From: Acidobacteriota bacterium
GTDB lineage: Bacteria > Acidobacteriota > UBA6911 > RPQK01 > JAJDTT01
Length of the DNA: 64,000 nucleotides
Assembly (NCBI GenBank): GCA_965217775.1
Contig: CBDCJH010000002.1
Coordinates: forward strand, 4,160,001 to 4,224,000
Direction of reading: 5' to 3'
The position numbers and the translations under genes were made by a program. Of this stretch, positions 1,051 through 63,238 are shown piece after piece. The notes below the pieces were generated by a model. That model had not been told where the DNA came from and did no database searches. It saw only the letters and a program-made list of their open reading frames with translations. Every line of letters begins with the position of its first letter. Positions within the stretch are counted from its first letter, which is position 1.

Positions 1051-1208
1051 CAGCCCGTGGCAAAAGTCGTCACGGCATTCGACCGTCCCTGCATCCCGGC
1101 GGACTGCGTTGCGACTCGGTCACATACTCCCGGTATGCTCCCTCATCGCGCCTTGTCCGGCGGGCGCAGGAACGGTCTCGGTGCTCGCGCGACTTTCACC
1201 ACGGGCTG
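1051..1208 (+). mobile_element. MITE family A, copy 1 (158 bp)
   Basis: TIRs CAGCCCGTGGCAAAAGTC / GACTTTCACCACGGGCTG; TTAA on both sides; three further full copies in the window. Confidence 0.92.
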
Positions 1209-1235
1209 TTAACGCTGCGCATTTTCCTCTGCCCT

Positions 1236-2861
1236 TCAACGCCCGTTTCGGAAGCCGAAGGAGAAGAGCTTGGCCTGCTTCAGATGGAAGCGCAGCTTAA
1301 CCGGTTTTCCGACCAGGCGGCTCACGCCGCCCTTGCCCTTCCAGGTTACGGCGGCGCGAACCGAGTCGCCCTGGAAGGCATCGCAGTCTTCCCTGGCGTA
1401 GCCTGGTATCGGCCGTCCCGTCTCGGGATCCAGGATTTCGGCGGCGACTTCGCCCTGGGGACCGGCCGTATTGGCATTGATCTCCAACCGGTCTCCATCG
1501 AAGACCAGCGGCTTGGTGGTCATCGAGCCGTCGCCTGCGGTCAGCGAAACGAAACCGTCCAGCCGCAGCGTGGCCAGCGACACCGAGCTCTCCTGATTCT
1601 GGCCCCGCCGAACGGCCCAGTGTCCCCGCTCGAACCCCACGTAGTAGATCCGGATCTCGCCCAGCTCCTCCCGCACCACCGGCTGCTGCGCCACGAAGAT
1701 CATGCCGCCGTCGTAGCTCCCCTCGGGACCGTTGGGGATGAAGGTGCGCCGATCCCCCACCCGCTGCCAGTTCCTGCCGTCGCGGCTGAAGGCCAACTGG
1801 ATGTCGATTCGATCCATCCAGGGATTTCGGGCGTTGCCCCGCACCGGAGGCATCTCGGGCTCCATTCCGGGACAGACGTGATAGGGGGTGAGGAAGCCGA
1901 CGTAGACACCTTCGTACTGGAGGATCTCGAAGGTGTAGAAACCGGCGGTGCAGGGGCCGTCCTCGGCGTCGGGCGGGACCAGGATGTACTTCCGGTTCAC
2001 CTCCACCGGATCCCGCATGTCCTTGGGAGCGTCCCAGCGGATGAAGTCGGGACTGGTGGCGATTCCGGGAGTCCTGACGTTCCCTTTCCGGTTCTTGAAG
2101 TGAAATCTCGGATCGTCGGCGAAGAGGGGCGGCTTGAGCCGGATGTGGGCCACGTAGCTCTCCCGTTTCCCGTCCCAGAACACCGCCTGGTGGGTGTCGT
2201 TGTTCAGATAGACCGGATTCACTTCGGGGTACGGGTAGTCCTTCCAGCGGATGCCGTCGGCCGAGTACGCGGCCCAGACGCCGCTTTTGGGCCGGCGCCG
2301 GTTGTAGAGCATCTTGTAGCGCTTTTCCGGGTCGGCTTCGTGGAGATCCTTGAAGACTCCCGGAGCACCCAGCCGATGGGCGTCGCCGAACACGAAGTTG
2401 TGGGAGCGGGCCGCCTCCCTCCGGCAGTAGTCCGACTTGTATTCGAACTGTCCCACCGCCGGCTTCTCCCAACTGAGGCCGTCTTCGGAGACGTAATAGC
2501 CGAGCAGGCTGGTGGACCAGTCGTAGTTGACCGCCTGGTTCCACATCTTGAAGCGGCGGTCCTCCTTGTCGTAGACGAGGTTGGGAGAGTTGGCGAAGTG
2601 CATGTCCGCCTCCCAACACTGGTCCATCTCGATCACCGGATTCCCGGCGTACTTGAGAGGCTGGTTCAAGAGCTTGAAGACGGTGCCGTCCAGCGACTCG
2701 ATGACATAGTCGTCGATGAAGAGCTGCTTGTCGGTGCCGATCTCCAGCACCGCGGCGGGAACCGGCGGCGTCAACGACAGCACCAGGAGCAGAACCAGAC
2801 GGACGGGGCCTGCGGCGGGAACGGTTTTGTCCGGATGACGGGACTTCTTCCTGTGATTCAT
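1236..2861 (-). CDS. Exported beta-propeller glycoside-hydrolase-like protein (family member 1, Cys-rich subgroup)
   Basis: Signal peptide; KQLFIDD start motif, SxDGxxW repeats, LRLDGFVS and KLRFHL C-terminus. Confidence 0.8.
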   Translation of the reverse strand: MNHRKKSRHPDKTVPAAGPVRLVLLLVLSLTPPVPAAVLEIGTDKQLFIDDYVIESLDGTVFKLLNQPLKYAGNPVIEMDQCWEADMHFANSPNLVYDKEDRRFKMWNQAVNYDWSTSLLGYYVSEDGLSWEKPAVGQFEYKSDYCRREAARSHNFVFGDAHRLGAPGVFKDLHEADPEKRYKMLYNRRRPKSGVWAAYSADGIRWKDYPYPEVNPVYLNNDTHQAVFWDGKRESYVAHIRLKPPLFADDPRFHFKNRKGNVRTPGIATSPDFIRWDAPKDMRDPVEVNRKYILVPPDAEDGPCTAGFYTFEILQYEGVYVGFLTPYHVCPGMEPEMPPVRGNARNPWMDRIDIQLAFSRDGRNWQRVGDRRTFIPNGPEGSYDGGMIFVAQQPVVREELGEIRIYYVGFERGHWAVRRGQNQESSVSLATLRLDGFVSLTAGDGSMTTKPLVFDGDRLEINANTAGPQGEVAAEILDPETGRPIPGYAREDCDAFQGDSVRAAVTWKGKGGVSRLVGKPVKLRFHLKQAKLFSFGFRNGR

Positions 2862-2973
2862 GTTGCCTCCGATTGCTGCTCGGGCGTGACGAGGGGAACT
2901 CAGAGTTGGTACAAGAATAGCTCAATATGGTTCCAGTCCTCGGTGGACGACTCCTCGAAGCGGAGAATTACGG

Positions 2974-4449
2974 ATGAAAGCAGGACTGATCGCCGCGTGT
3001 TTCGTCTTCGTGACCCTCGCCGTGGTAGCCGGGCCCTCGCCCAGGGTGCAGCCCGAATCCGTGGCCATCGGCTCCCGCCTGGAGCTGTTCGTGGACGGCC
3101 ACCTGATCGAGTCGTTGAAGGGAGCGCGGCTGGAGCTTCATCCACCCCGGCCCGCGGAGCGGGTGCTCTTTTTCGACCGGGATTGGGAAGGGGGAAACAG
3201 CGGCTACGTCACCGTATTCCGGGACGGCGGCCGATACCGCATGTACTACCGGGGCGCCAGCTCGAAGGGATACGCCGTCCCCTCCCTGTCGAGGCCGGGA
3301 GAAACGCCCGTGCCGGAGCACCCCCAGGTGGCCTGCTACGCCGAGAGTCCTGACGGGATCGCCTGGAGCAGGCCTTCGCTCGGCCTCTTCGAGTTCAACG
3401 GCTCAACCGACAACAACATCGTCTGGACCGGCTCCGGCGGGCACAACTTCTCCCCCTTCAAGGACACGAATCCCGACGCCCCTCCCGAGCAGCGCTACAA
3501 GGCCGTGGGGAGCGGCCGCATCGACGGAAAACCGGCGCTGCTGGGATACGTCTCTCCGGACGGCATCCGCTGGAAGAGACTGCGGCAGGAGCCGCTTCTC
3601 ACCGACGGAAAATTCGACTCCCTGAACGTGGCCTTCTGGGACTCGGTGCGGAATCGGTACGCCGCCTTCTACCGCGACTTCCGACACGGCGTACGCACCA
3701 TCAAACATGCCACCTCGCCGAACTTCCTGGATTGGACTCCCGGGCAATGGGGCGACTTCGGGGATACCCCTCCGGAGCACCTCTACACCAACGGGACGGT
3801 GGCCTACTTTCGCGCCCCGCACCTCTTCCTGGCCCTGCCCCGGCGCTTTCTGCCCTGGCGGAAGCTCTACCCGGACGCCCCGGTGCCGGGCGCGTCCGAC
3901 GGGGTCTTCATGAGCAGCCGCGACGGGGTCCACTGGGACCGGCGCTTCCTGGAGTCGTTCATCCGGCCCGGTCGCGACCCCCGCAACTGGCCTCAGCGGA
4001 CCAACACTCCGGCGCGGGGCATTGTCCCAACCGCCGAGGATGAGATCTCCCTCTACGTCGAACGTCACCGGTCGTCACCGACCAACCATCTGCAGCGGCT
4101 GGTGTTGCGCACCGACGGGTTCGTCTCGGTCCACGCCGGCTACTCCGGCGGGGAGATGATCACCAGGCCGTTCGTCTTTCAGGACGCCAACCTGGTGCTC
4201 AACTTCTCCACCTCGGCCGCCGGCAGCATCCGGATTGAGATTCAGGATGCGCACGGCCGCCCCTGTCCGGGGTTTGCCTTGGAGGAGTCGCCTCTGATCT
4301 GGGGCGATGAGATCGAGCACGTGGTCCGGTGGGAACGAACTCATCCCAAGGCGACCTCGGAAAAGCCTCTGGCCCATCTCGCCGGGAAGCCGCTGCGGCT
4401 GCGCCTGGTGCTGAAGGACGCGGATCTCTACTCCCTGAGATTCCGGTAG
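2974..4449 (+). CDS. Exported beta-propeller GH-like protein (member 2)
   Basis: Signal peptide; RLELFVD, SPDGIxW, FDSLN, LRTDGFVS, ADLYSLRF. Confidence 0.8.
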   Translation: MKAGLIAACFVFVTLAVVAGPSPRVQPESVAIGSRLELFVDGHLIESLKGARLELHPPRPAERVLFFDRDWEGGNSGYVTVFRDGGRYRMYYRGASSKGYAVPSLSRPGETPVPEHPQVACYAESPDGIAWSRPSLGLFEFNGSTDNNIVWTGSGGHNFSPFKDTNPDAPPEQRYKAVGSGRIDGKPALLGYVSPDGIRWKRLRQEPLLTDGKFDSLNVAFWDSVRNRYAAFYRDFRHGVRTIKHATSPNFLDWTPGQWGDFGDTPPEHLYTNGTVAYFRAPHLFLALPRRFLPWRKLYPDAPVPGASDGVFMSSRDGVHWDRRFLESFIRPGRDPRNWPQRTNTPARGIVPTAEDEISLYVERHRSSPTNHLQRLVLRTDGFVSVHAGYSGGEMITRPFVFQDANLVLNFSTSAAGSIRIEIQDAHGRPCPGFALEESPLIWGDEIEHVVRWERTHPKATSEKPLAHLAGKPLRLRLVLKDADLYSLRFR

Positions 4450-4501
4450 CGGGCCGAGCAACGGTGCTCCGGTTCCCGGCCCGACTGAATGGTTCACGTC
4501 A

Positions 4502-5368
4502 ATGGACATCAACTTCATACCCCATCCGTTTCAGGGTACGCCCTACGGCGAAGCGCTCGACCTGGCGATCGTTTTCGCCATCGCCTGCTGGCTCTTGTCG
4601 GTCATCACCCGTGAATACTCCTGGGTGGACCGCATCTGGTCCATCTGTCCCGCCATCTATTGCCTGATCGTGGCCGCCGACTCGGATTTCAGTTCGACGC
4701 GGCTCAACGTCATGTCGCTCCTGGTGGTTGCGTGGGGGGTTCGATTGACCTTCAATTTCGCGCGCAGAGGCGGTTACCGGGCCGGCGGTGAAGACTACCG
4801 CTGGAAAGTCGTGCAGGAAAGACTGGGCCCGGTCAAGTTTCAATTCCTCAATATCACCTTCGTCGCACCCGGACAGATGTTCGTGATCTGGTTATTTACA
4901 TCTCCTGTGCACCAGGCATGGTCGGGACGCAATCAAACATTAAATCATGTTGATATTATTGCAATTATTCTATTTATGATCTTTTTGGTGATAGAAACGA
5001 TAAATGACGAACGGATGTGGGCGTTTCAGCAAGACAAGAAGCGTAAGTTCAAGGCCGGCGAGCCCGTAACGCAGACTTTTATCACGAGCGGGTTCTTCAA
5101 ATACTGTCGCCATCCCAGTTATATATGTGAAATGGCCATGTGGACCGTATTTTATCTGTTCGGGATCGCGGCGACGAATCAATGGATCCATTGGTCCGGA
5201 CTTGGATTTATTTTTCTTATGTTTATAATTGCCGGATCGACAAGATTGGGCGAATCCATATCTGTAGATCGATACCCTTCTTATCGAGATTATCAAGCCT
5301 CGACACCTCGATATATTCCTTTTACTCGCATAGGTTGCATTAAATCCGCTGGCAAGTCGCCGGTTTGA
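4502..5368 (+). CDS. DUF1295 / steroid 5-alpha-reductase-like membrane protein
   Basis: YSWVDRIWS, WGVRLTFNF, EDYRW and CRHPSY motifs; multiple TM helices. Confidence 0.85.
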   Translation: MDINFIPHPFQGTPYGEALDLAIVFAIACWLLSVITREYSWVDRIWSICPAIYCLIVAADSDFSSTRLNVMSLLVVAWGVRLTFNFARRGGYRAGGEDYRWKVVQERLGPVKFQFLNITFVAPGQMFVIWLFTSPVHQAWSGRNQTLNHVDIIAIILFMIFLVIETINDERMWAFQQDKKRKFKAGEPVTQTFITSGFFKYCRHPSYICEMAMWTVFYLFGIAATNQWIHWSGLGFIFLMFIIAGSTRLGESISVDRYPSYRDYQASTPRYIPFTRIGCIKSAGKSPV

Positions 5369-5581
5369 TCTTTTATTTATACATGTATAAATAAAGGGGG
5401 TTTCTTTCTCTCAGGATCCTCCTGACCTGAGCGATGAGGTTAACGGGGGGGTTCGAATCTCGCTCGGAAAGCTGTCGTTGCGGGGAAATAGGGGATTCGA
5501 CCATTGACTTCGACCGACACCAACCGACAAAGAGAACCCTTGAGGGCAACTCTCCAGAAACAGCTCCATCGGCCGACGTCG

Positions 5582-6190
5582 TTACGGAGCCAGGACTCGA
5601 ATTCGAAATTTGCTTCGCAGGTCTTCTACGAAAACTTTCAACGACCGCTCCATTCTTCCGGCCCGGTACAGATCCATCTTCTCTGCAAGCTCGGCCGCGA
5701 ACTCAATCCCACCGAGCGTTTGAGGATGACCTCCCCTCTGAATCGCCGTCCGAAGAACCGTCTTATAGTAGTTCCTCTCGCATTTTTCGGAACCGAGATC
5801 AGGTTGACCCCCAACGACGTCGTAGAAAGAATTCACATCTGCCATATACCAGCGCTCGATATGAGGGTCAGGACAGGCTGCAACCAGCAGATGAAGATAA
5901 TCTTGTCCCACTGCATCTTCGATACTGGATCTGGTTTGTGCAAAGCTATTGCAGTTGGAGTCGATAGCGACAATGATCATATCCAAAGTGGCATTGAGGC
6001 CGAGATGTTGCCGATACTGCAGATAGAATCCAAGTTCACTGATGACTCGTGGGTGACCGCCGTGCGCCGTTCTTACTTGGCAACGGACGTCCGCGCCTTC
6101 TTCCATGGCAATGCGCTTCACCAATGGCACAAGCAATTTCTCGTGTGCTGCGTCTTCCATGAAAAGCTCGACGGCCAGAGCCTCACTCAT
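5582..6190 (-). CDS. DUF4276/RloB-like (TOPRIM-like) protein
   Basis: ELFMED, IVAIDSN and PHIERWYMAD motifs; start overlaps the ATPase stop. Confidence 0.65.
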   Translation of the reverse strand: MSEALAVELFMEDAAHEKLLVPLVKRIAMEEGADVRCQVRTAHGGHPRVISELGFYLQYRQHLGLNATLDMIIVAIDSNCNSFAQTRSSIEDAVGQDYLHLLVAACPDPHIERWYMADVNSFYDVVGGQPDLGSEKCERNYYKTVLRTAIQRGGHPQTLGGIEFAAELAEKMDLYRAGRMERSLKVFVEDLRSKFRIRVLAP

Positions 6191-7448
6191 TGATCCATCC
6201 ACGCAAGACCATAAATTCGAAGATGCCATCTTCCGTTTTACTCGTGAGCTTGCTCATGATGTCGAGCTTATCGAACAGCTCGACCGGGGGATCGAAGCGG
6301 TGGATTTGAGTTTCCCGACCAACACGGCGCACGTTGTACAAAGCGACATCGCCGTGTGACCGTCCCCGCGTTTCTTTGAGCACCGCATCGCAAAAGAGCG
6401 GCGAGTGGGTCGTGACTACGACTTGGCGTTCTTGCTCCAGAGCCATCGCGGTCAGCATTTTGGCAATCAGTTCTATCCGTCTCGGATGCACACCATTCTC
6501 GGGCTCCTCGAAGGCGAGAAGTGAGCCACTCCACGGATTCGCTGAGATGGCACAGAGCGCCAGCACTCGGAGTGTCCCCTCGGAAACGACGCGGGAAGAG
6601 TAATTGGTGCCGTTCTGCCGAACGTTGATGTCAAGAATGCCTCGACGCTTGTCCAGATCGATGTCAAATGCCTCGACGCTTGGAATTATTGATTGTACAG
6701 TTCGGACGACCGACTCAAAGTTCTTTCTGTGCTCCGCCTTGAGTCTGTACAGGAAGGCTGAGATGTGCTCCCCGAACACGCCTATATCAAACACATCCAG
6801 TGGTGGCGTAGTATGCCGCATGGCTAGCCGCGGGTCCAAGTAGTAGGTTCTCCAATTCAAGAGCTCTGCCCGAACCCGCTCGATGTACTTGTGTGCCGGA
6901 CTTCCCAAACGTGGGTCGGAGAGGACGGAATAATTCTGATTGAGGTCCTCGAAACGAGGTCTCCCGCCACCACTCTGGCGCCGGATCTTCAAACGCCCAT
7001 GCTCCGGCTCCACTTCAATTGCCGGCACTCCTTTCTCATCCCCGGTCGTTGAAAGAGCCGAAAGATACTCACCACAGTTGGTCAGCGCCCCCGACTTGGA
7101 GGCGATTTCCACTTCGATTTGATAACGGTAACGATTCTTTCTGGTTTTTTCCCCCTCAGGGATTGCCAAATCCGCAGAAATCGAAAACTTGGCAGTAGAT
7201 CTCGAAAGTAATTCTGGGATTCCACCGACAGGCAGAGCAAATGCTTCTATCGGGTATCCTCTAATCATTTGTCCACCGAGGGCATCCATCAGGGTGCGCT
7301 CCGTTCCAATCCTCGAAAGGGCCTGAATCGCGTCGAGGAGGTTGCTCTTTCCAGCAGCATTGGGTCCGAAAAGAATTGTCAAACGGGGAAATTCCATTGA
7401 TATGTTGGAGAGTGATTTGAAGCTACGAACAGTCAGGTTCTGAATCAT
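6183..7448 (-). CDS. ABC-type AAA ATPase (AAA_21/AAA_15-like)
   Basis: Walker A GPNAAGKS, SEGTLR signature, Walker B LAFEEPENGVHP, H-loop TTHSP. Confidence 0.9.
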   Translation of the reverse strand: MIQNLTVRSFKSLSNISMEFPRLTILFGPNAAGKSNLLDAIQALSRIGTERTLMDALGGQMIRGYPIEAFALPVGGIPELLSRSTAKFSISADLAIPEGEKTRKNRYRYQIEVEIASKSGALTNCGEYLSALSTTGDEKGVPAIEVEPEHGRLKIRRQSGGGRPRFEDLNQNYSVLSDPRLGSPAHKYIERVRAELLNWRTYYLDPRLAMRHTTPPLDVFDIGVFGEHISAFLYRLKAEHRKNFESVVRTVQSIIPSVEAFDIDLDKRRGILDINVRQNGTNYSSRVVSEGTLRVLALCAISANPWSGSLLAFEEPENGVHPRRIELIAKMLTAMALEQERQVVVTTHSPLFCDAVLKETRGRSHGDVALYNVRRVGRETQIHRFDPPVELFDKLDIMSKLTSKTEDGIFEFMVLRGWINE

Positions 7449-7870: not shown

Positions 7871-7883
7871 CGTCTGCACTTTC

Positions 7884-17092: not shown

Positions 17093-17223
17093 CCGTTTCG
17101 AGTTCTTGTGAAGCTGCCGTGCGGGACGCCTGGGATCTGAAGCTGGCACCAGCCGAATGGTACAATCCACGCAAACCCCCAACAAGGCCGGCCCGGAGAG
17201 GCCGAACAGCCGGGAACCGCTGG

Positions 17224-17382
17224 GAGCCTGCGCGGCAGAAATTGATCTACTGCGAAAGCGGTAGAATCGGTCCATATTTCCCCGATTTCTCGGCGAATAG
17301 AACGACTATGCACCTCAAAATCGAGAAAATCTGGCCTCGATTCCCCGCTTTCTCGCTACGATCATTCCTGCCGCGCAGACTC
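17224..17382 (+). mobile_element. MITE family B, copy 1 (159 bp)
   Basis: TIRs GAGCCTGCGCGGCAG / CTGCCGCGCAGACTC; flanks CTGG/CTCG (degenerate CTAG); inverted homologue at 62156-62314. Confidence 0.85.
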
Positions 17383-17385
17383 CTC

Positions 17386-31360: not shown

Positions 31361-31690
31361 TCATCGACTCGTTAGTTGATCTTCCAGGTTTTCCGAGATC
31401 CATTGATTCAGGCTCTGGTCATGCTCTTTAGCCTGAACGTAGACCCGGCGGTGGAGTTCAGGCGAAAGTCGTAGCGTAAGGCGGCCAGAGAACGGTTTTT
31501 CCGGATCTTCTCCGCATTCGGAGCAAAATTCCAAATAGTCATCGATAGATTCACGAAAAGCGCGCTCAAGATCGTTGACCGTATCGCCCTGGAATGTGAT
31601 CACGTCGCGCGTGTCCAGCACTTCGCCGTGGAATGCATGGGCTTCTGCGTCGTACTCGGCGTGACCAACGTATCCCTTGTATTCCAGCAT
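31361..31690 (-). CDS. hicB: HicB antitoxin
   Basis: MLEYKGY...DVITFQG...PEKPFSGRLTLRLSPELH...SLNQW; TAATG overlap with hicA. Confidence 0.92.
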   Translation of the reverse strand: MLEYKGYVGHAEYDAEAHAFHGEVLDTRDVITFQGDTVNDLERAFRESIDDYLEFCSECGEDPEKPFSGRLTLRLSPELHRRVYVQAKEHDQSLNQWISENLEDQLTSR

Positions 31691-31959
31691 TATTCCTCCT
31701 CTGGCCCGAACCCGGCCGTTTTCAAGAATCTTTGAACGGACCTCAGCGCAGCTCTTCCAACTTCCTTTCGAGGATGCGGACGATGGAACACGGCGCGAAC
31801 TCCATTCAGGTACACACGGATGCGGGATCCCCGCCCCTCCGAAACCCTCGCACCAAGCGCTAAAAATAGCTTCTCGATGCGCGACCAAGCCAAGCCGGCG
31901 CGCGTAGGTCGCTCGAATATCTCATTCAGAATTTTCCGATGTCGACCTGTGGAGGGCAT
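31690..31959 (-). CDS. hicA: HicA toxin
   Basis: EGRGSRIRV...FHRPHP motif; 89 aa. Confidence 0.9.
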   Translation of the reverse strand: MPSTGRHRKILNEIFERPTRAGLAWSRIEKLFLALGARVSEGRGSRIRVYLNGVRAVFHRPHPRKEVGRAALRSVQRFLKTAGFGPEEE

Positions 31960-31986: not shown

Positions 31987-32065
31987 TGTTTGCAAGTGGT
32001 ACTGTCGAGATGCCGACGAAATGCAGTCTTCTCTGGATCGAGAAGGCTCTCCCAACTGGCTCTAA

Positions 32066-32223
32066 CAGCCCGTGGCAAAAGTCATCACGGCATTCGACCG
32101 TCCCTGCATCCCGGCGGACGGCGTTGCGATTCGGGCACATACTCCCGGTATGCACCCGAATCGCGCCTTGTCCGGCGGGCGCAGGAACGGTCTCGGTGCT
32201 CGCGGGACTTTCACCACGGACTG
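32066..32223 (+). mobile_element. MITE family A, copy 2
   Basis: 158 bp; CTAA on both sides; right duplicate contains the TAG stop of the adjacent minus-strand gene. Confidence 0.92.
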
Positions 32224-33225
32224 CTAAAGCTTGAGCTCGTCTTCTATCCTTACCTTTCGTCCCTCCTCCCGCCGCGAGATGTCGGCGCCGATCATGATGC
32301 GGCACACGGCCACCGTGTCCTTCATCAGCTCGACGGGACGTTTTCCCGTCCGGACCATGGACACGAAGTCGCCGAGCAGGCTCCGCATCATGAAGAAGGG
32401 GTCGTCGGCCGGCAGTACCGAGTGTCCCTGCGTTCCGTGAAGCGACATCTCCAACGTCTTGGCCATGGGATAGAGGACCTGCAACAGGGCGAGGCGCCGG
32501 TTCGAGTAGGTCACCTCCACCGACCAGTCCCCTCCCTGAACCTGATGCCGGTTTTCGGCGCCGTCCCGCCAAGGAACGGTCTTGAGAGGTCTCGGTTCTC
32601 CCAGAAAGGTGACGCTGACCGGTTCCCGGCCCCAGAGTTGAACCAGAGTCTCTCCCATGTGCCAGCCGTAACCGAACCAGTCCATGGCCGACAGGCCGCG
32701 GAAGAGGCGGGCCGTCCCGACCGGACTGGACTCCGACTTCAGTTCCCGGAGCGCCGGATTGTAGCGAAGGTTGGAGCAACTCATGAGAGGGTAGTCCTCT
32801 CCAGCCTCGCTCCACAGTTGTCGCATCGCATCCCAGCGGCTGACCAGGGGCCGGTCGAAGAAGATCGGGATCCCGCGTTCCAGGAAGGGCCGCGCCAGGG
32901 GTAGATGGACATCCCCCTCGTTCTCGGTAATCAGGACGCCGTCCACCCGGTCCAGAAGCTCCTCCGGCCGATCCGCCACGTGGGGAATCCGCCCGATCCA
33001 GGCGGCGTGTTCCGCCTTGCGGCGATCCTCAGCCCAGATCGACACCACCCGGGCTCCGGCAAGCCGCCGCTCTTCCGGCGGTTGGGCCTCCAGGTAGCGC
33101 ACGATGTTGGGGTAGGCTTCTTTCAACCCCTGCCGAGCGTAGCCGTTGCAGAAGGCGGACAGGGAATAGGGATGGCCATGGGAGACTCCCAGGATGCCCA
33201 GACGCAATTCTGAATTCGCCGACAT
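32224..33225 (-). CDS. Gfo/Idh/MocA-family oxidoreductase
   Basis: LRLGILG Rossmann start, VDGVLI, HLPLARPFLERGIPIFFDRP, YGWH. Confidence 0.8.
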   Translation of the reverse strand: MSANSELRLGILGVSHGHPYSLSAFCNGYARQGLKEAYPNIVRYLEAQPPEERRLAGARVVSIWAEDRRKAEHAAWIGRIPHVADRPEELLDRVDGVLITENEGDVHLPLARPFLERGIPIFFDRPLVSRWDAMRQLWSEAGEDYPLMSCSNLRYNPALRELKSESSPVGTARLFRGLSAMDWFGYGWHMGETLVQLWGREPVSVTFLGEPRPLKTVPWRDGAENRHQVQGGDWSVEVTYSNRRLALLQVLYPMAKTLEMSLHGTQGHSVLPADDPFFMMRSLLGDFVSMVRTGKRPVELMKDTVAVCRIMIGADISRREEGRKVRIEDELKL

Positions 33226-33236
33226 GCCGCCACCTG

Positions 33237-34895
33237 TTACTGGAATTGAAAGGCAAAGATCTTGGCTCGGCGCAAGTGGAAGCGAAGGCGCACCGGTTCT
33301 ACGGCCAGATCCTTCAGGCTCGGCCCATTCCTCCAGGTGACCTCGTGCGCGACCGCGTTTCCCTGGAAGGCGTCGCAATCTTCCCGGCCGAACCCGGCCA
33401 ACGGAACCCCGGTCGAGGCGTCCAGGACCTCGACCGCGACCCGTCCCTCGTCGCCCGTGGTGCGGGCGTTGATCTCCAGACGCTCACCCTCGAAAACCAG
33501 AGGCTTGGTGGTGAACTCCCCTTCTCCGGCCGTCAACGAGACGAATCCGTCCAGGCGCAACTTGGCCAGGCTGATGCTGCTCTCCTCGTTCTCACCCCGC
33601 GGCAGCGCCCAGTGACCCTTGCGGTAGCCGATGTAGTAGAGCCAGATCTCTCCCAGATCCTTCCGCACCACCGGCAACTGGGCCATGTAGACCATCCCGG
33701 CGTCGTAGGAGTCGGCGGGCCCGACCGGCAGGAAGGGACGGCCGTTTCCCAACCGATGCCACTGCCGGCCGTCCCGGCTGACGACCAACTGGATGTCCAC
33801 CGTGTCCAGCCAAGGCGTCCGGGCCGTTCCCCGCATGGGCGGGATCCCCGGCTCCATCCCGCTGCAGATATGGTAGCGGGTCAGGAAGGCCACGTACTGA
33901 TTCTCATAGGGAAGGCACTCCAGGGTGTAGAAGCCGCCGGTGCAGGGCGCATCCCTCTCGTCGGGCGGGATCAGGAGGTACGGGCGGTTGACTGCCACCG
34001 GGTCCTTCATCCCCTGGGGCGCGTCCCACTTCAGGAAATCGGCGCTGGTGGCGATTCCGGGAGCCCGCACCCGCCCTTCTCGCGTCTGGAATCGGGAATC
34101 GCTTTCGAAGAGGGGAGGCCAGAGTCGTATGTGGGCCACGTACCGGCTGCGGGCCTCGTCCCAGAACACCACCTGGTGAGTGTCGTTGTTCATATAGACG
34201 GGATTGACTTCGGGACTGGGATAGTTGGTCCACCGGATCCCGTCGGGCGAATAGGCGGCCCAGACGCCACCCTTGACGGTCTCGGCGTGAAATCCCGCTT
34301 GCCCCGGCTTGAGCGCGGGACGCCGGTAGAGCATCTTGTAGCGCTTCGCCGGGTCCTTTTCGTGGGGATCCTTGAAGACCCCCGGCGCCCGGACTCCGCC
34401 AGGCTTGCCGAAGACGAAGTTGTGCTCCCGGGAGGCTCGTCCGGCACAGAAGGGCGAACGGAAGTCGAATTGCCCCACGGACGGCGCCTCCCAGTCGATC
34501 CCGTTGGTGGAGGTGTAGTACCCGAGAAGGTTCTCCTTCCAGAGATAGTCCACCACCTGGTTCCACATCTTGTAGATCTTCTCTTCCCGGTCGTAGATCA
34601 GGTTGCTGTGTCCGAAGTCCATGTCGGCGCCCCAGCAACGGTCCATCTGCAGGACGGGGTTCCCAGCGTATTTCAGGGGTTGGTTGACCAGCGAATAGAC
34701 GCCTCGGCGGGATTCCACGATCCGGTCATCCAGGAAGAGTTGCTTCTGCCGGCCGACAACAATCGGTTCCGCCCCAGCCTCCATGGAGACCGTGGCGCCG
34801 GACAGGAGGACAAAGGCAAGCAAACTGAAAGCAAGGTACCGAGGCCGGAATTCTGGACTGTGAAGCGGCACTGCGTACGATTTGGAAACGATCAT
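33237..34895 (-). CDS. Exported beta-propeller GH-like protein (member 8, Cys-rich subgroup)
   Basis: NQPLKYAGNPV, NNDTHQ, APCTGGFYT, LRLDGFVS. Confidence 0.8.
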   Translation of the reverse strand: MIVSKSYAVPLHSPEFRPRYLAFSLLAFVLLSGATVSMEAGAEPIVVGRQKQLFLDDRIVESRRGVYSLVNQPLKYAGNPVLQMDRCWGADMDFGHSNLIYDREEKIYKMWNQVVDYLWKENLLGYYTSTNGIDWEAPSVGQFDFRSPFCAGRASREHNFVFGKPGGVRAPGVFKDPHEKDPAKRYKMLYRRPALKPGQAGFHAETVKGGVWAAYSPDGIRWTNYPSPEVNPVYMNNDTHQVVFWDEARSRYVAHIRLWPPLFESDSRFQTREGRVRAPGIATSADFLKWDAPQGMKDPVAVNRPYLLIPPDERDAPCTGGFYTLECLPYENQYVAFLTRYHICSGMEPGIPPMRGTARTPWLDTVDIQLVVSRDGRQWHRLGNGRPFLPVGPADSYDAGMVYMAQLPVVRKDLGEIWLYYIGYRKGHWALPRGENEESSISLAKLRLDGFVSLTAGEGEFTTKPLVFEGERLEINARTTGDEGRVAVEVLDASTGVPLAGFGREDCDAFQGNAVAHEVTWRNGPSLKDLAVEPVRLRFHLRRAKIFAFQFQ

Positions 34896-51763: not shown

Positions 51764-53431
51764 CTGAGGCTCACGAAATGGGTCCCCGCGGCAGCACTGT
51801 TCCTGACCTGTGTCGCTGGTCACGCGGGAGAGCTCACCCTTGACAGCCCGTGGCAAGAGTCGTCACGGCATTCGACAGTCCGTGTTCCCAGAACGTCTCC
51901 GGCCCCTACCAGCCCGTGGCAAAAGTCATCACGGCATTCGACCGTCCCTGCATCCCGGCGGACGGCGTTGCGATTCGGGCACATACTCCCGGTATGCACC
52001 CGAATCGCGCCTTGTCCGGCGGGCGCAGGAACGGTCTCGGTGCTCGCGGGACTTTCACCACGGACTGCTACCGGCACGGTAGCGGTGACTACTGGCAACG
52101 TCGAGAAACGCAGCCGGCCGGTCGAAATGGTGGTGGCGCCCGCGGGCACAGCGGACAACATCCTGATCATCACAGTCGACAACCTCGGCTATGGCGACCT
52201 GAGAAGCTACAACCCGGACTCCCCCATGATCACCCCCAGCCTCGACAGGCTGGCCTCCCAGGGTGTCCGGTTGACCGGTTTCTACACGGCTTCCCCCACC
52301 TGCACCGTTTCCCGCGCCTCGCTCCTGACCGGACGGGTCCCCCAGCGCCATGGCCTGACCGAGCAGTTGTCCGGCGTCGCCGGAAATTACGGCGTCGGAT
52401 TGAGCCAGAACGAAATCATGCTCCCGCAACTCCTGAAGCGGGCGCCGGATCCCTACGCCACCGGTTGCTTCGGCAAGTGGAACATCGGCTTCGCCCCCGG
52501 CTCGCGGCCCACCGAACGCGGATTCGACGAATTCATCGGCCATGCCTCCGGGAACATCGATTACTACCGCCACAACTACCGCCAGATGCACGACCTCTAC
52601 GAGGGCGCCCGCAAGCTCGACGGCAAGGGGCGCTACGCCACCGGCCTGTTCGGAGACGCGGCGATCGACTTCATGCGGAGGAAGTCCAAGGCCTCGCAGC
52701 CCTGGTTCTGCTACCTGGCGTTCAACGCGCCCCATTTCCCGGTGGCGGGAAACAAGCGTCCGGGACAGGCCAATACCTGGCAGGCGCCGGACTGGGCCTT
52801 CGAGGCTTGCGGATCGAGTCCTGACGATCCCGACCCGGCCACCCGGTATCGAGCCGTGGTGTTCGCCCTCGACCACGCCATCGGGCGCGTCCTGGAGGCG
52901 CTGGAGGAGACGGGAGCGGCGAATCGCACCTTCGTGTTCTTCATGTCGGACAACGGCGCCTTCCGGCTCGGGCGCCAGGGACTGGACGTGGGCGTCAACA
53001 CGCCTCTGCGCCAGGGCGGCGTGACCTGCTGGGAAGGCGGCCTGCGGGTGGCGGCGATGGCTCGCTGGCCGGGCCGGATCGAGGCGGGCGCCGTCGTCTC
53101 GGAGCCGCTCTGGTCGCCCGACCTGCTGACGGCCTGCGCCAGGATCGCAGGTGCCGCTCTGCCGGGAGGGGTCCGATTGGACGGCAGGGACCCCCTTCCG
53201 GTCCTCACCGGGGGAGCAAGATCGCCGCACGAGTCATTCTATTTCGAGTACCGGAGCCACGCCGCCCTGCGCCAAGGGGATTGGAAGATCGTGCGCGAGC
53301 GGCCGGAACAGCCCTGGCAGTTGTTCGATCTGGCCGGAGACCTGCCCGAATCCAACGACCTGGCGGAGCGGTACCCCGGCCGAGTCGCCGAGCTCGAAGC
53401 CGAAATCCGGCGCTGGAATAATTCCTTCTGA
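51764..53431 (+). CDS. Sulfatase (Cys-type) with MITE-derived N-terminal insertions; start inferred at CTG
   Basis: VDNLGYGD, CTVSRASLLTGR, GKWN, FNAPH, SDNG, WEGGLRV; frame open from 51761. Confidence 0.85.
   Translation: MRLTKWVPAAALFLTCVAGHAGELTLDSPWQESSRHSTVRVPRTSPAPTSPWQKSSRHSTVPASRRTALRFGHILPVCTRIAPCPAGAGTVSVLAGLSPRTATGTVAVTTGNVEKRSRPVEMVVAPAGTADNILIITVDNLGYGDLRSYNPDSPMITPSLDRLASQGVRLTGFYTASPTCTVSRASLLTGRVPQRHGLTEQLSGVAGNYGVGLSQNEIMLPQLLKRAPDPYATGCFGKWNIGFAPGSRPTERGFDEFIGHASGNIDYYRHNYRQMHDLYEGARKLDGKGRYATGLFGDAAIDFMRRKSKASQPWFCYLAFNAPHFPVAGNKRPGQANTWQAPDWAFEACGSSPDDPDPATRYRAVVFALDHAIGRVLEALEETGAANRTFVFFMSDNGAFRLGRQGLDVGVNTPLRQGGVTCWEGGLRVAAMARWPGRIEAGAVVSEPLWSPDLLTACARIAGAALPGGVRLDGRDPLPVLTGGARSPHESFYFEYRSHAALRQGDWKIVRERPEQPWQLFDLAGDLPESNDLAERYPGRVAELEAEIRRWNNSF
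51844..51884 (+). mobile_element. MITE family A left-end remnant
   Basis: CAGCCCGTGGCAAGAGTCGTCACGGCATTCGACAGTCCGTG matches the first 41 nt with few mismatches. Confidence 0.8.
51910..52067 (+). mobile_element. MITE family A, copy 3 (in frame in the sulfatase gene)
   Basis: 158 bp; CTAC on both sides. Confidence 0.92.
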
Positions 53432-58500: not shown

Positions 58501-59084
58501 ATGAGTTCGCCAGGCACGAGCTCAATGGCCGGCCGCGCTACAACCGGACCCACAGCCTCTACGCCACCCTGGTCTATGAGCTGCCCTTCTTCAGACAGGC
58601 CCAGGGTCTGACCAGAACTCTCCTGGGGGGTTGGGAGACCACGGGCATCGTCACTCTGGCCAGCGGCGCACCCTACGGCGTGCAGGTCAGCAGCGACCTG
58701 AACGATGTGGGGCGGCGCCGGTTGTTGCTTCCCAACCGGACCTGCAACGGGAACCTGAGTGAGAGTCAACGGACGGTGACCCGCTTCTACGACACCAGTT
58801 GCTTCCAGCCGGCGCCGCTCGGTGAATGGGGCAATTCAGCCATGTTCCCGCTGGTAGCGGACGACGTCCAGATGTTCGATATCGGTATCCACAAGAAGTT
58901 CGTGGTGGGAGAGGGGAAATCTTTCGACGTACGGGCCGAAATGTTCAACGCTTTCAACCACACGATCTTCGACACGCCGGGTGGAAAGGGTGGTCAGGAC
59001 TCGGTGGACCGCTCCGGCATCGGTCGAGTCTCAGGGGCCACCTCGGCGCGGCAGATCCAGATCAGCCTGCGGTTCTCCTTCTAG
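55548..59084 (+). CDS. TonB-dependent receptor (Oar-like), paralogue of 19354-22842
   Basis: Shared RFVRDxGGLPAVNGLRPD, WRMFGTNRTVLR, DTPGGKGGQD; C-terminal LRFSF; GGAGG RBS. Confidence 0.93.
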   Translation: MSIDRFTTARPDFRPGALGILVPILLALALAAPPAYGQSTTFSQLGGSVRDQTGSVIPGVEITASITEIGLERTTITNDHGYYVIDKLPADVYEVKASLPGFKTQLAPNVELRGGQKGRVDFLMEPGEIVESITVVDAIATIETETPDMSSTLRQREMLDLPFSGNTGRDLIHLAELATGAVTVRFAQDSRFVRDGGGLPAVNGLRPDASSEIQYDGARNQTLYDQKAAVKPTPETVKEFKVVTNTVSAEYGKVGGTVVSMVSNSGTNEFHGHIWEYFQNEGMNANGFFANRSGLGKLPFTSHNTGAAVGGPIIKDKTFFYSAYELFYNDFAVPGEMEVPSLAERQGDFSLGDGPWGMQTIYDPFNVVDGQRQPFPGNRIPQDRIHPISRRVMDLVPFPEPNSSEIPNYNYQHATKRKINKFSTRVDHNFESDSSIFGRFSFQTDPAVSHGGAQNFYGGGNFSSYTGRGRVGVPGMLNGVYESSSTNDNGWQTMGGWVKPFGARVVNELSVSGWWFRGHRFTEDETNWVQEFGYDIADQVKLVAEDGGRGPGGLPDIRIEGYGRINGETDGRRQDRGLNLKDTLAWQEGNHYLKFGFEHIRYYDNQLRWVPSGSASNRFNGYITGQILQDGAGNVTGSTRGQPFADFLLGASSSVSANILGGGGYGTGSIRGIDTMSFYAFFLQDDWKVSPDLTVNLGVRWEIPLPATWFRDKTTCFFDLSGGRYGAVQMVPKGFPVDADIVTGGDRSLLVIPHVERGSRACVDPHYKDFAPRIGIAWRMFGTNRTVLRLGVGTSFDQVIGAWYGGTGWLGHYAGRVSGVHQRGTNPDLFLGTYRTVPSVAASKIHPPGYQHDPSSSQTGQIYSYNLSIQHELMPGTKLEIAYVGNQGRHMRSSRGWNVAQPEGKAMFLQTGERLVATGSRQERRPYPQLDGNLTTFFDGSSNYNSLQMKVERNLRNGLSFSTGWTWGAAFITNTHGAYFSGVQNEFARHELNGRPRYNRTHSLYATLVYELPFFRQAQGLTRTLLGGWETTGIVTLASGAPYGVQVSSDLNDVGRRRLLLPNRTCNGNLSESQRTVTRFYDTSCFQPAPLGEWGNSAMFPLVADDVQMFDIGIHKKFVVGEGKSFDVRAEMFNAFNHTIFDTPGGKGGQDSVDRSGIGRVSGATSARQIQISLRFSF

Positions 59085-59114
59085 CCCGACCGGGCCTCTG
59101 GCTGGTAATCCTCA

Positions 59115-59147
59115 AGGGGCCGCCATCCGGCGGCCCCTGTTTTTTTT
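59115..59147 (+). terminator. Intrinsic terminator
   Basis: AGGGGCCGCC-atcc-GGCGGCCCCT followed by G and T8. Confidence 0.88.
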
Positions 59148-59151
59148 GGCT

Positions 59152-59173
59152 CTAGGAGGCTGCGCGGTAGAAT
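59152..59173 (+). promoter_or_regulatory. Solo MITE-B end supplying a candidate -10 (TAGAAT)
   Basis: CTAGGAGGCTGCGCGGTAGAA vs CTAGGAGTCTGCGCGGTAGAA at 62152; TAGAAT lies 6 nt before GTG 59180. Confidence 0.55.
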
Positions 59174-59179
59174 GTTCCG

Positions 59180-60823
59180 GTGAACTGGGCAGAGTTCCCT
59201 TTGTCGGCGCTGTTTGTCGCCTCGGCTTCCGCCTTGGCCTTCGGGGCCGACAGCGGCCGCCCTCCGTTCTTCGTCGACGTCAGCGAGAAGGCGCAACTGT
59301 CCTTCCTGCACGCGCCCAGGGCCGAGAGTGAGAGCTGGATGGCCAAGTTCATGGTCATCACCATGGGGTCCGGCGGGGGATTCTTCGACTACGACAACGA
59401 CGGCCGTCTCGATGTCTATCTGGTCAACGGGGTCGAACCCAATCGGCTCTTCCGGAACCGGGCCGACGGCAGTTTTGCCGATGTCACCGGCGAAGCGGGG
59501 GTGGGCGATACCTCGTATGGGATGGGGTGTGCGTTTGCGGACTATGACAACGACGGCTTTCAGGACATCTATGTCAGCAATCTGGGTCCCAATGTCCTCT
59601 ACCGCAACAACGGGGACGGCACTTTCAGCGACGTCAGCACCAGGGCCGGGGTGGGAGACCCGCTCTGGAGCACCAGCGTGGCCTTTGGCGACTACGACCG
59701 GGATGGGCACGTCGACCTCTATGTGTGCAACTATCTGAAGTTCTCCTTCGCCAGCCATCGCAACTGCTACTTCGGCGATATTCCCATCTACTGCTATCCC
59801 CACAGTTACGACGGCGTCCCCAACACGCTCTATCGCAATCGTGGTGACGGCACCTTCCGGGACGTCACGGCTCGAGCCGGCCTTCGGGAAGCCGCCGAGT
59901 TCAGCAAGGGGCTGGGCGTGATCTGGCTCGACTTCGACCGGGACGGCGACCTGGATCTGTTCGTGGCCAACGACACCACCGCCAATTACCTGTTCGAGAA
60001 CCAGGGAGACGGCACCTTCGAGGACGTTTCTCTGGTCTCCGGGACCTCTCTCAGCGCCATGGGAGTTGCTCAGTCGGGAATGGGCGTGGACGCCGCCGAT
60101 CTGGACGGCAAGGGGCGCTTTCACGTCATCGTGACCAACTATTCTCTCCAGAACAACGCCCTCTACTGGAACGAGGGCTTCGGACTCTTCAGCGATCGTA
60201 TCGTCCGGACCCGCCTCGCCGGACCCAGCTTCGTCCCGCTGGGTTTCGGCGTCAACTTCTTGGATTACGACAACGACGGCTTTCCGGATCTGTTCGTGGC
60301 CAACGGGCACGTCCTGGAGCAGGCGGGGACCGTCAATGCCAGCACCGGCTACCGGCAGCCGAACCAACTGTTTCGCAATGCCGGCGAAGGTCTCTTCGAA
60401 GAGGTCTCGTCTCGGGCCGGCGATTATTTCAAGGTCGAGAACGTCTCTCGCGGATCGGCCGTCGGAGATTTCAACAACGACGGGAGGCTGGATCTGCTGG
60501 TCTCCAACAACGGGGGCAAGGCGGATCTCCTGGAGAACAGGACCGGGTCCGAAAACAACTGGATCAAACTCAAGCTGGAGGGAACGCACTGCAACCGAAA
60601 CGCCATCGGGGCGAAGGTCTTCGTCGACGCGGGAGGGGTTCGACAGTTGCAGGAGGTCCGCGCGGGAAGCAGCTACCTGAGCCAGAGCGATCTCAGGATC
60701 CATTTCGGCCTGGGGAAGGCGACCCGGGTGGATTCGATTCGAGTCGACTGGCCCTGCGGCAAAAGGACCCGGATCCCCGCCCCGGGAATGCTGAACCGGA
60801 TTCTGGAGATTCGGGAAGAATGA
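59180..60823 (+). CDS. CRTAC1-family FG-GAP + ASPIC/UnbV protein
   Basis: DYDNDG repeats; SYLSQSDLRIHFGLG; paralogue of 24245-25906. Confidence 0.92.
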   Translation: MNWAEFPLSALFVASASALAFGADSGRPPFFVDVSEKAQLSFLHAPRAESESWMAKFMVITMGSGGGFFDYDNDGRLDVYLVNGVEPNRLFRNRADGSFADVTGEAGVGDTSYGMGCAFADYDNDGFQDIYVSNLGPNVLYRNNGDGTFSDVSTRAGVGDPLWSTSVAFGDYDRDGHVDLYVCNYLKFSFASHRNCYFGDIPIYCYPHSYDGVPNTLYRNRGDGTFRDVTARAGLREAAEFSKGLGVIWLDFDRDGDLDLFVANDTTANYLFENQGDGTFEDVSLVSGTSLSAMGVAQSGMGVDAADLDGKGRFHVIVTNYSLQNNALYWNEGFGLFSDRIVRTRLAGPSFVPLGFGVNFLDYDNDGFPDLFVANGHVLEQAGTVNASTGYRQPNQLFRNAGEGLFEEVSSRAGDYFKVENVSRGSAVGDFNNDGRLDLLVSNNGGKADLLENRTGSENNWIKLKLEGTHCNRNAIGAKVFVDAGGVRQLQEVRAGSSYLSQSDLRIHFGLGKATRVDSIRVDWPCGKRTRIPAPGMLNRILEIREE

Positions 60824-62070
60824 TTCGCTGGTGGAATGCCGGCTGCTGCGTGCTGGTCTGCCTCACGACCGCTGCCCTGTGCCGGGACGCCGACTTTGAG
60901 CGGGCTTTGAGAATGATGGGGGAGTTGGACTATCCGGGAGCGCTGGCGGCGTTTCGTCAGTTGGCAGAGCGCCCCGATCCCGATCCCGCGATCTACTTTC
61001 AAATGGGGGCCTGTCAGACCGTCCTGGGGCAATACTCCGCGGCTTTGGAGAGCTTCCGGCAGGCCACGGAGGCTGGCTTGGCGGAGAGCTGGCAGATCTG
61101 GTCCGCCCGAGGCATCGCTCACTTCAACCTGGAACGATTCCCCGAATCCCGGCGAGCATTCGAGCGAGTCCTGGGTCAGGAACCGGACGAGTTCACTTCC
61201 TTGTTCTTCTTGGGCCGGTTGGATCTGGAGGGAGGCGAGTTGGACGCCGCGGAGGCCAGGTTCCGCCGCGTGATCCAGCTTGAATCCAGCTACGAGCCCG
61301 CATTCTACTATCTCGGACGCACCTTGATCCGCAACGGAAAGACCGCGGAGGGGAAACGGATTCTTCGATACCACCAGCGGCGGGAACACCTCCAAAACCG
61401 GCTCCGGACCCTCACCGATCTGGCCAGATCCGAGAATACGCCGGCAGAGATCTACGCTGAGATGGCCGGAGTCTATCTCGATCTGGGAAGTCGGCAGCAG
61501 GCCCGGAAGGCTCTACACAAAGCGGAGGAGATCGCTCCGGCTACCGAGTTGACCCGGCTGGTTCGCGGCCGGTTGAGCTACCTGGACGGTAACTTCGACC
61601 TGGCCGAAGAGCATCTGGCGGCTTACCTGAAGATCGAAAGCCGGAAGTGCGATGCGCACCACTTCCTGGGTCTGGCCCTGAAGGCTCAACGGAAATTTTC
61701 GGCCGCGGCGCGCGTCCTGCGCCGCGCCTCGGATCTCTGTCCTCCCGAAGTCTCCCTGCTGGCCTCCCTGGCCGAGGTGGAGATCCAGAACCGGAATCTG
61801 CTGGTGGCGGTGGCGCTGGCGGACAAGATCACCAAGCTGGACCCGGCCGCGGCGGAGGGTCCGTTCCTGAAGGCCGTTTCCTCCCTGTACCGTCATGATC
61901 TCCAGGGAGCGGAGAAGTGGGCGCTGCGCGCCCTCCACCTGGAGCAGGAGAATCCCGAGTATCACCGCCTTCTGGAAGCCATTTATCGCAACCAGGGCGA
62001 CACCGAAAAAGCGGACCTCCATCGGAAACAGATGGAAATTCTGTTGTCCGACCGGAAATCATCGGAATGA
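60820..62070 (+). CDS. TPR protein, coupled to the CRTAC1-like gene
   Basis: TPR repeats; ATGA overlap; shares CxTVLGxY and REHL...LRTL with 22977-24248. Confidence 0.85.
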   Translation: MIRWWNAGCCVLVCLTTAALCRDADFERALRMMGELDYPGALAAFRQLAERPDPDPAIYFQMGACQTVLGQYSAALESFRQATEAGLAESWQIWSARGIAHFNLERFPESRRAFERVLGQEPDEFTSLFFLGRLDLEGGELDAAEARFRRVIQLESSYEPAFYYLGRTLIRNGKTAEGKRILRYHQRREHLQNRLRTLTDLARSENTPAEIYAEMAGVYLDLGSRQQARKALHKAEEIAPATELTRLVRGRLSYLDGNFDLAEEHLAAYLKIESRKCDAHHFLGLALKAQRKFSAAARVLRRASDLCPPEVSLLASLAEVEIQNRNLLVAVALADKITKLDPAAAEGPFLKAVSSLYRHDLQGAEKWALRALHLEQENPEYHRLLEAIYRNQGDTEKADLHRKQMEILLSDRKSSE

Positions 62071-62155
62071 TCCGGCCGTCCGGGCGTCACGCCTGAGTCC
62101 GGAAGACCCGCCGTGGAACCGCTTGCTCCCGCGCCGCATCGATGATCTCTGCTAG

Positions 62156-62314
62156 GAGTCTGCGCGGTAGAAATGATCGTAGCGAGAAAGTGGGGAATCG
62201 AGGCCAGATTTTCTCGATTTGGAGGTGCATAGTTGTTCTATTCGCCGAGAAATCGGGGAAATCTGGACCGATTCTACCGCTTTCGCAGTAGATCAATTTC
62301 TGCGGCGCAGGCTC
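62156..62314 (-). mobile_element. MITE family B, copy 2
   Basis: 159 bp; CTAG on both sides; right CTAG contains the TAG stop of the TPR gene. Confidence 0.88.
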
Positions 62315-63238
62315 CTAGCCCGTGCCCAGACCGTACAGGTTCAACAACTCGATGAATTCCTGACGGTCACGAAATCGGTCGAACGCCTGCTCTGCGGCCA
62401 GCCGCTCCTGGTCCAGGAACCCGACCGCCAACGCCTTCGCCAGATAATTCAAGCATTGCGCCAAGTTCTCCATCTCGGCAAAGAGGCGCGCCAAGTTGTA
62501 GTGCGTTTCCGGATCCAATCCCATTGGATCCGAATAGGTGACACGGGTTCCGCTTCTCTGGTCGAAGGCCTGAGGATCCAGGTCCATGGCTTTGCGGTAG
62601 GCTCGACGGGCCAGGTCGTAGTGACCCCACAACATCCGACCATATCAGTCCGTGGCGAAAGTCGCGCGAGCACCGAGACCGTTCCTGCGCCCGCCGGACA
62701 AGGCGCGATTCGGGTGCATACCGGGAGTATGTGCCCGAATCGCAACGCAGTCCGCCGGGATGCAGGGACGGTCGAATGCCGTGACGACTTTTGCCACGGG
62801 CTGATATCCCAGATTGACGTAGAAGAACGACTGGGGATCGATGGCAATCGCTTGTTCGAAGGAGCGAACCGCCTTCTCGTATTGTCGGTTCGACAGCAGG
62901 GCGATTCCCAGCGTGTTGTGGGCCGGAGCGTACCGCGGATCGAGTCTGATGGCGTGTTCCGCCGCCTTTCGTCCCTGCCAAAAGCGTCCGGTCCGACAAT
63001 ACGCGATCGCCAGTTTGTTGAAGATGGCCTCGTGATACGGATTCAAGTTCGTCGCCTCAAGATACTTGAGGATGGCGAGATGATCCTTTCCTTCCTCCAA
63101 CATCCGGTCGGCCTCTCCCATAAGGCGGTAGGAGACGAGGACGCTCTCGCGAGGCACCGGGAGCTTCGTGATCCGGGAAGGACCGCAGCCGAGGAGGAAC
63201 CCCGTGAGAAGAACGATCGCGGTTCTCGAGGCCGTCAT
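62315..63238 (-). pseudogene. TPR lipoprotein gene interrupted by MITE-A
   Basis: Lipobox LLGC; removing the MITE and one ATAT restores ...VNLGY-GRMLWGHY... in frame. Confidence 0.85.
62646..62803 (-). mobile_element. MITE family A, copy 4
   Basis: 158 bp; ATAT on both sides; intragenic. Confidence 0.93.

Follow-up and report, generated by a model that had tools for sequence, protein, structure and literature searches.

The 64,000-nucleotide stretch of DNA analysed here (G000:C2:4160001-4224000, referred to below as the window) comes from an acidobacterial genome of 6.43 Mb with a G+C content of 62.3%, and it contains four full copies of a 158-bp MITE (a miniature transposable element with inverted repeats) which we will refer to as MITE-A. 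A first-pass annotation of the window had proposed that this element preserves the reading frames that it enters and donates peptide segments to proteins, in the manner of the Rickettsia palindromic elements (RPE). The analyses described below indicate instead that MITE-A is very probably an ordinary non-autonomous DNA transposon, sharing its ends with an insertion sequence (IS) of the IS1182/IS5 type, which avoids genes and whose neutrality towards reading frames is incidental. The copies of MITE-A in the window and the genes that adjoin them are as follows.

1051-1208, + strand: MITE copy 1, 158 bp; TTAA duplications at 1047-1050 and 1209-1212
32066-32223, + strand: MITE copy 2, 158 bp; CTAA duplications at 32062-32065 and 32224-32227
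32224-33378, - strand: oxidoreductase-like (GFO_IDH_MocA-type) gene
51844-51884, + strand: MITE remnant, the left end of an older copy; the remnant also occurs at this place in the relative G006
51910-52067, + strand: MITE copy 3, 158 bp; CTAC duplications at 51906-51909 and 52068-52071
52127-53431, + strand: sulfatase gene (Pfam Sulfatase) downstream of copy 3; likely start ATG 52127
62315-62635, - strand: downstream part of a split TPR gene; its frame agrees with that of the upstream part
62645-63292, - strand: upstream part of that split gene (TPR), 215 aa, of which the last 54 come from the element
62646-62803, - strand: MITE copy 4, inverted, 158 bp; ATAT duplications at 62642-62645 and 62804-62807

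The four full copies and their perfect 4-bp duplications were seen where they had first been described, and they group together at 93-99% identity in the repeat finder. The remnant was likewise recovered, both by blastn (38 nt at 92%) and by the repeat finder (45 nt at 91%, positions 51840-51884, family D9). It is also correct that the element and one duplication together measure 162 bp, and that in copies 2 and 3 the three forward frames are free of stop codons, with the three TGA codons of the reverse strand all falling in one frame. The statement that two of the four copies lie inside reading frames could be upheld only in part. Copy 4 is indeed located inside a TPR-repeat gene, although the frame that crosses the element ends at a TGA formed by the last two bases of the element and the first base of the duplication; this gene is uninterrupted in the closest relative, G006. 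The stretch surrounding copy 3 is open in the frame of the sulfatase, but no ATG, GTG or TTG codon precedes the element in it. This stretch is 90% identical to that of G006, and the sulfatase gene itself 95% identical; the first in-frame ATG after copy 3 is at 52127, and the Pfam Sulfatase match begins 10 codons later. Copy 3 is thus most likely, with moderate confidence, a 5' non-coding insertion 56 bp upstream of the sulfatase ATG. The two remaining copies are non-genic: copy 1 is intergenic and lies directly 3' of a gene at 1236-2861 (- strand), and copy 2 adjoins the stop codon of the oxidoreductase-like gene, whose TAG falls within the right duplication. It was into this stop codon that copy 2 inserted, and the duplication has kept it. 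Among the window copies, therefore, only copy 4 is truly genic, and the TPR gene is truncated by it. Just upstream of copy 2, an open reading frame (ORF) with a HicB antitoxin domain (74.8 bits) was observed at 31361-31888 (- strand).

A blastn search of the host genome with window copy 2 as the query gave 272 matches, of which 212 are full-length, i.e. reach both ends of the element, and 60 are partial. The full-length copies range from 148 to 162 bp, with 149 of them having a length of 158 bp, 34 of 159 bp, 20 of 160 bp and nine of other lengths, and the sequence of window copy 2 is shared without change by 46 copies. Perfect 4-bp duplications border 154 of the 212 copies, and duplications with one mismatch 36 more. 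In the perfect duplications, the second position is T in 137 cases and the third position is A in 136, the commonest words being TTAA (27), CTAG (19) and ATAT (13); additionally, a C precedes the duplication at 56% and a G follows it at 47% of these 154 sites. This flanking bias, taken together with the TA core, identifies the target as the palindrome c-YTAR-g. The element folds as a single hairpin over its whole length (-96 and -114 kcal/mol for the two strands, z -8.5 and -12), and its terminal inverted repeats read CAGCCCGTGG at the left end and CCACGGACTG at the right end, the latter giving CAGTCCGTGG when it is read on the opposite strand in left-end form. A transposase gene is absent from it, and the ORFs within it are chance open frames only. 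Hence, MITE-A displays the features by which prokaryotic MITEs are recognized, namely short length, terminal inverted repeats, a duplication of fixed length that varies from copy to copy, many dispersed copies and polymorphism between relatives. That it has been active recently, as had been supposed, is borne out by the 46 identical copies and by filled sites which are empty in the nearest relative; in G006, sites that are precisely empty and hold the 4 bp just once were found for window copies 3 and 4 and for one further genic copy (L029, see below).

A scan for the 18-nt end motif outside the known copies gave three inverted pairs about 1475 bp apart. They delimit three copies of a 1475-bp IS whose termini share 16-18 nt with MITE-A and whose flanks are CTAG/CTAG, TTAG/CTAG and TCAA/TCAA, respectively. 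Two of these copies are mutually identical and their transposase reading is apparently frameshifted near the C-terminus, and the third (L007; G000:C2:2325898-2327373) carries an intact ORF of 452 aa. The transposase matches Pfam DUF772 (63.8 bits; cut-off 23.1); the match to DDE_Tnp_1, obtained on a frameshifted copy, is below threshold (17.9 bits; cut-off 23), and the IS5 models of NCBIfam score at most 80 bits. This IS is likely to be the autonomous partner of MITE-A, and the shared ends and shared duplication suggest that its transposase moves MITE-A. From the 4-bp NTAN target, the first-pass annotation had predicted that an IS5/IS1182-like partner with matching ends would exist, and the 1475-bp IS answers to this prediction.

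The distribution of MITE-A with respect to genes was examined by means of an empty-site test, in which the element and one duplication were removed by a script and the frame and coding score were then checked. A copy was scored as genic when, on each side of the emptied site, 40 or more codons were open in the frame and the coding score was positive; genes were called with a home-made codon-usage model trained on long ORFs, which gave about 4300 genes covering 83% of the genome. By this test, 15 of the 212 copies are genic. The numbers expected for sites with the same target words are 72.3 of 154 (4-mers) and 73.4 of 154 (6-mers), and when random sites sharing the 4-mers were put through the identical test, 1326 of 3080 (43%) passed; the neutral expectation across the site-matched estimates is 43-48% overall, and the overall binomial P is ~1e-19. 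Genic copies are also scarce among the copies that are identical to one another (6/46; P 1e-5 versus random sites with the same 4-mers), and a replicate in other genomes gave 5 genic copies out of 62. When divergence from the master sequence (the type of window copy 2) is used as a proxy for age, the genic copies number 6/46, 4/37, 4/46, 1/50 and 0/33 from the youngest class to the oldest (Mann-Whitney P 0.004), or 14/129 at 94% identity or more versus 1/83 below it (Fisher P 0.006). Genic insertions do not last, and we infer that selection, rather than targeting, is the cause of the gene avoidance. Another 23 copies, out of 197, are situated 2-39 codons ahead of a scoring ORF's stop, and here C-termini may be altered. 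Lastly, the duplication falls on a stop codon itself for 24 of the 139 non-genic copies, compared with 198 of 2780 control sites (P 5e-5); copies are often found on TAA or TAG stops because stop codons contain the target.

The 15 genic copies comprise nine in which the frame of the host gene stays open through the element (read-through) and six in which it ends at a stop. They are listed below together with the state of the homologous sites in related genomes.

L018: read-through; fragmentary DUF1156 anti-phage-associated protein; homologue not found in a flank search of five relative genomes
L019: read-through; TonB-dependent receptor-like; site empty in G007, G002, G001 and G005
L021: read-through; OB-fold protein; site empty in G005
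L022: read-through; ORF without a family; site empty in G006 and roughly so in G005
L023: read-through; ORF without a family; site empty in 77%-identical homologues, which are possibly paralogues
L024: read-through; ORF without a family; site empty in G006
L027: read-through; sulfatase; site filled in G006, where the sequence past the element no longer matches (rearranged), and empty in G007
L029: read-through; AlbA_2/HATPase_c_4/HTH regulator; site empty in G006
L031: read-through; ISNCY-type transposase; site empty in a 76%-identical homologue in G005
L020 and L030: stopped; ORFs without a family
L025: stopped; AbiEii toxin gene
L026: stopped; second TonB-dependent receptor-like gene
L028: stopped; TnpB
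Window copy 4: stopped; TPR gene

The observed read-through (9/15) is below the 5/6 that would be expected by chance for an element with five of its six frames open (P 0.027). The nine read-through inserts are spread over frames +0, +1, +2, -0 and -2, and with five frames in use no one peptide is preferred. For seven of the nine, the homologous sites that were detected in relatives are all empty. Fourteen of the 15 genic copies are 158 bp long, and this is a consequence of their age, as a frame-compatible length (3n, i.e. element plus duplication divisible by three) tracks youth. The genes affected are mostly dispensable or broken. The sulfatase of L027 (also L040; G000:C2:4119034-4121060) combines an in-frame MITE-A insert with a deletion of ~439 bp, the missing sequence being present in G006, G007 and G002, and it matches only positions 99-299 of the 301-position Pfam sulfatase profile, the first 98 having been lost. 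In view of this deletion and of the partial match, the gene is broken in G000.

Neither the length nor the open frames of window copy 2 are general characteristics of the family. A 3n length is found in 153 of the 212 copies overall, in 123 of 129 at 94% identity or more and in 30 of 83 below it, the last being the chance third. The older subfamilies, which are defined by shared indels, have consensus sequences of 159 and 160 bp with three of six frames open and all reverse frames closed, and the consensus of the whole 158-bp group has four of six frames open. Similarly, the mean number of open frames per copy decays from 5.0 for the identical copies to ~3.0 for old ones. The frame-preserving design that had been proposed for MITE-A finds no support, given this lack of conservation of length modulo three, and neither does the proposed donation of peptides to proteins, given the rarity and youth of the genic copies and the nature of the genes in which they occur.

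On the explanation that we consider very probable, MITE-A is a near-perfect 158-bp hairpin carrying just the ~18-nt ends of the 1475-bp IS, whose DDE transposase, acting in trans, would recognize the shared ends. The element would be cut and pasted into the short palindromic target, with duplication of its central 4 bp, and there has been a recent burst of the element. Insertions into genes do happen but would then be purged by selection, leaving survivors that sit between genes, often exactly on stop codons. The length of 158 bp (162 bp with the duplication) and the five open frames are a trait of one young sublineage of a GC-rich palindrome, and the 54-codon in-frame inserts are occasional by-products rather than a conserved design. 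Several observations weigh against this explanation. The gene calls are crude and constitute an unvalidated annotation, which is a caveat on all of the genic counts, and the avoidance of genes among identical copies could partly reflect a preference at insertion instead of selection. The sequence shared by MITE-A and the IS is limited to the ends, their interiors being unrelated, and the best NCBIfam model for the transposase, IS1182 (NF033551), reaches 171 bits versus a curated cut-off of 270; the IS is a distant member of IS1182 at best. A database search gave 46 proteins with the MITE-A frame peptide, 12 of them with Pfam domains, and among 11 that were fetched, two have internal inserts, viz. 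P0027, an AAA ATPase, and P0009, a full-length sulfatase of 708 aa from a related genome with an in-frame insert, so that some in-frame inserts may be tolerated; in the other fetched proteins the peptide is N- or C-terminal, as would result when ORFs are called on into a neighbouring element. Additionally, five or more frames are open in 2.3% of the 20,000 dinucleotide-shuffled sequences (P 0.023) and in 3.2% of intergenic 158-mers, which is nominally unusual; the corresponding values are 6.2% for genic 158-mers and 0.4-1.9% under palindrome-preserving nulls (P 0.004-0.019). The depletion of stop codons relative to shuffles which the first-pass annotation had suspected is thus present nominally (P ~0.02-0.03), although the total of three stops is within the range of the shuffles (mean 5.4, P 0.15). 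The openness of five frames is uncommon only nominally, it belongs to one young sequence chosen post hoc, and it is not maintained across the family. These open frames, the 162-bp unit of the young master, the read-through copies, the 158-bp length of nearly all genic copies and the database proteins would also agree with selection of MITE-A as a 3n, stop-free element whose insertions into genes survive as 54-residue inserts, as in the RPE. We regard this as quite unlikely, however, in view of the four- to five-fold depletion of genic copies, even among identical ones, their disappearance with age, the sub-chance read-through over five frames, the older consensus sequences with their loss of 3n length and of open frames, the empty sites in relatives, and host genes such as those of an ISNCY transposase, of TnpB, of an AbiEii toxin and of the sulfatase that has lost 439 bp. 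A milder form of the proposal, in which the youngest 158-bp sublineage spread partly because landing in genes was made cheaper by its 3n length and five open frames, with a minority of copies persisting as 54-residue inserts in working proteins such as P0009, is also unlikely; if true, a free-living soil phylum would have a way of altering its proteins that resembles that of the RPE.

The very stable hairpin, formed on both strands, and the landing of 24 of the 139 non-genic copies exactly on a stop codon, at 2.4 times the control rate, would also suit a hairpin of the REP/ERIC type which has been recruited by the host and whose copies are kept for ending transcripts or stabilizing mRNA at gene ends. 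The landing on stop codons is, however, explained by the TA-containing target, the differences in presence between close relatives and the 46 identical copies fit mobility better than a fixed function, and MITE-A matches no Rfam family at the gathering threshold; a recruited hairpin is accordingly very unlikely. A different origin of the family was considered in view of four loci at which MITE positions 1-88 and 95-158 flank a segment of ~1.5 kb with a transposase gene, for a total of 1.67-1.75 kb, of which MITE-A could be a deletion derivative. This derivation is scarcely credible and we reject it, as the inner segment is a complete 1.52-kb element of the IS110 family (NF033542, 'RNA-guided transposase', 217 bits; cut-off 140) nested within otherwise ordinary MITEs. 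All four of these IS110 elements are inserted at an identical point, after ...GGTATGCT and before CCCTCATCG..., each host MITE has its own 4-bp duplication, and the IS110 units are 99.8-100% alike whereas the MITE arms, by reading of their sequences, differ more. Transposases of the DEDD type are not known to generate terminal inverted repeats accompanied by 4-bp duplications. The four IS110-family elements are located as follows.

L001: G000:C2:3134898-3136413
L002: G000:C2:1656637-1658152
L003: G000:C2:5760216-5761803
L004: G000:C2:6039611-6041198

A CT dinucleotide is present at both joints of the IS110 elements, and two of the copies contain a 72-bp tandem duplication of the start of the IS. 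A bridge-RNA match to Rfam was not found at the IS110 locus, where one weak sub-threshold Rfam hit was obtained. The arrangement suggests that the IS110 element is targeted, under the guidance of sequence, to an older variant of MITE-A, and the occurrence of an RNA-guided transposase of this family solely inside MITE-A may be a more useful lead.

With regard to its wider distribution, all eight of the further genomes from the genus contain MITE-A; the 32 searched from outside it gave no match. A scan of species genomes for its exact ends gave, among the matches listed, mostly records titled Acidobacteriota. Single exact-end MITE-A-like matches of 157, 161 and 170 bp, also among the matches listed, were observed in records titled as Polyangia (L085), Phycisphaerales (L099) and Vicinamibacterales (L130) metagenome-assembled genomes, respectively, and these could be due to horizontal spread or to bin contamination. 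A literature search did not reveal a description of the MITE-A family among the matches listed, which does not show that the family is unpublished. Within the host genome, blastn also matched derivatives of ~97 bp that keep MITE-A positions 1-52 and 107-158 and resemble internally deleted mini-versions of the element; they are found at the following places.

G000:C2 ~985933-986027
G000:C2 ~3579131-3579227
G000:C2 ~4889634-4889730
G000:C2 ~5007959-5008055

Two other repeats are present in the window. One is a second MITE-like family of ~166 bp with the ends GGAGCCTGCGC...GCGCAGACTCC, whose copies at 17219-17384 and 62154-62319 (inverted) are 95% alike, the latter being flanked by TA. The other is a 48-nt direct repeat (family D17) at 1-48 and 945-992, 94% alike, with a spacing of 944 bp.

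Selfish DNA inserted in frame into proteins is familiar chiefly from Rickettsia, and it would be notable if a free-living acidobacterium provided another case, one by design. The tests instead point to a standard MITE subject to ordinary purifying selection. The main use of the MITE-A family is as a marker for annotation and strain typing; in GC-rich genomes it also gives rise to falsely extended ORFs, as its open frames are joined to real genes by gene callers.

The comparison of MITE-A with known systems leads to the same view. As in the prokaryotic MITEs related to IS5 and IS1182, the element is a small non-coding repeat present in many copies, with inverted repeats at its ends and a TA-centred 4-bp duplication, and an autonomous IS with matching ends and duplication is present in its genome; it differs from them in that its interior is unrelated to the IS and is a nearly full-length palindrome. 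With the RPE it shares its palindromic nature, a length of ~150 bp and the ability to be read in frame within genes (nine cases). However, according to the 2024 review PMC10969869, nearly half of the RPE copies (Ogata et al., 2000, 2002) lie in ORFs, which is described as an unusually high frequency, and each RPE encodes a conserved peptide, whereas genic copies of MITE-A number 15 out of 212 and belong to the youngest ones, with five frames in use, and those homologues of its read-through sites that were detected in relatives are empty in seven of nine cases. MITE-A thus departs from the RPE in the share of in-frame copies in ORFs, in the conservation of peptide and frame, in retention among orthologues and in a frame-compatible length throughout the family, which is to say in every RPE-like property that was tested, and it behaves like ordinary MITEs. 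The same review states that in-frame fusions via intragenic MITEs are not unusual, and PMC5896051 that there are MITEs of Coxiella which extend or interrupt ORFs. Like the Coxiella elements QMITE1 and QMITE2 and the intragenic ERIC and BOX elements (PMC5896051; PMC10969869), MITE-A is mostly intergenic and occasionally extends, truncates or interrupts ORFs in frame, and the N- and C-terminal additions seen in its database proteins are of the same sort. By this comparison MITE-A is no different in kind from these elements, and what distinguishes it is its occurrence in another phylum, the Acidobacteriota.

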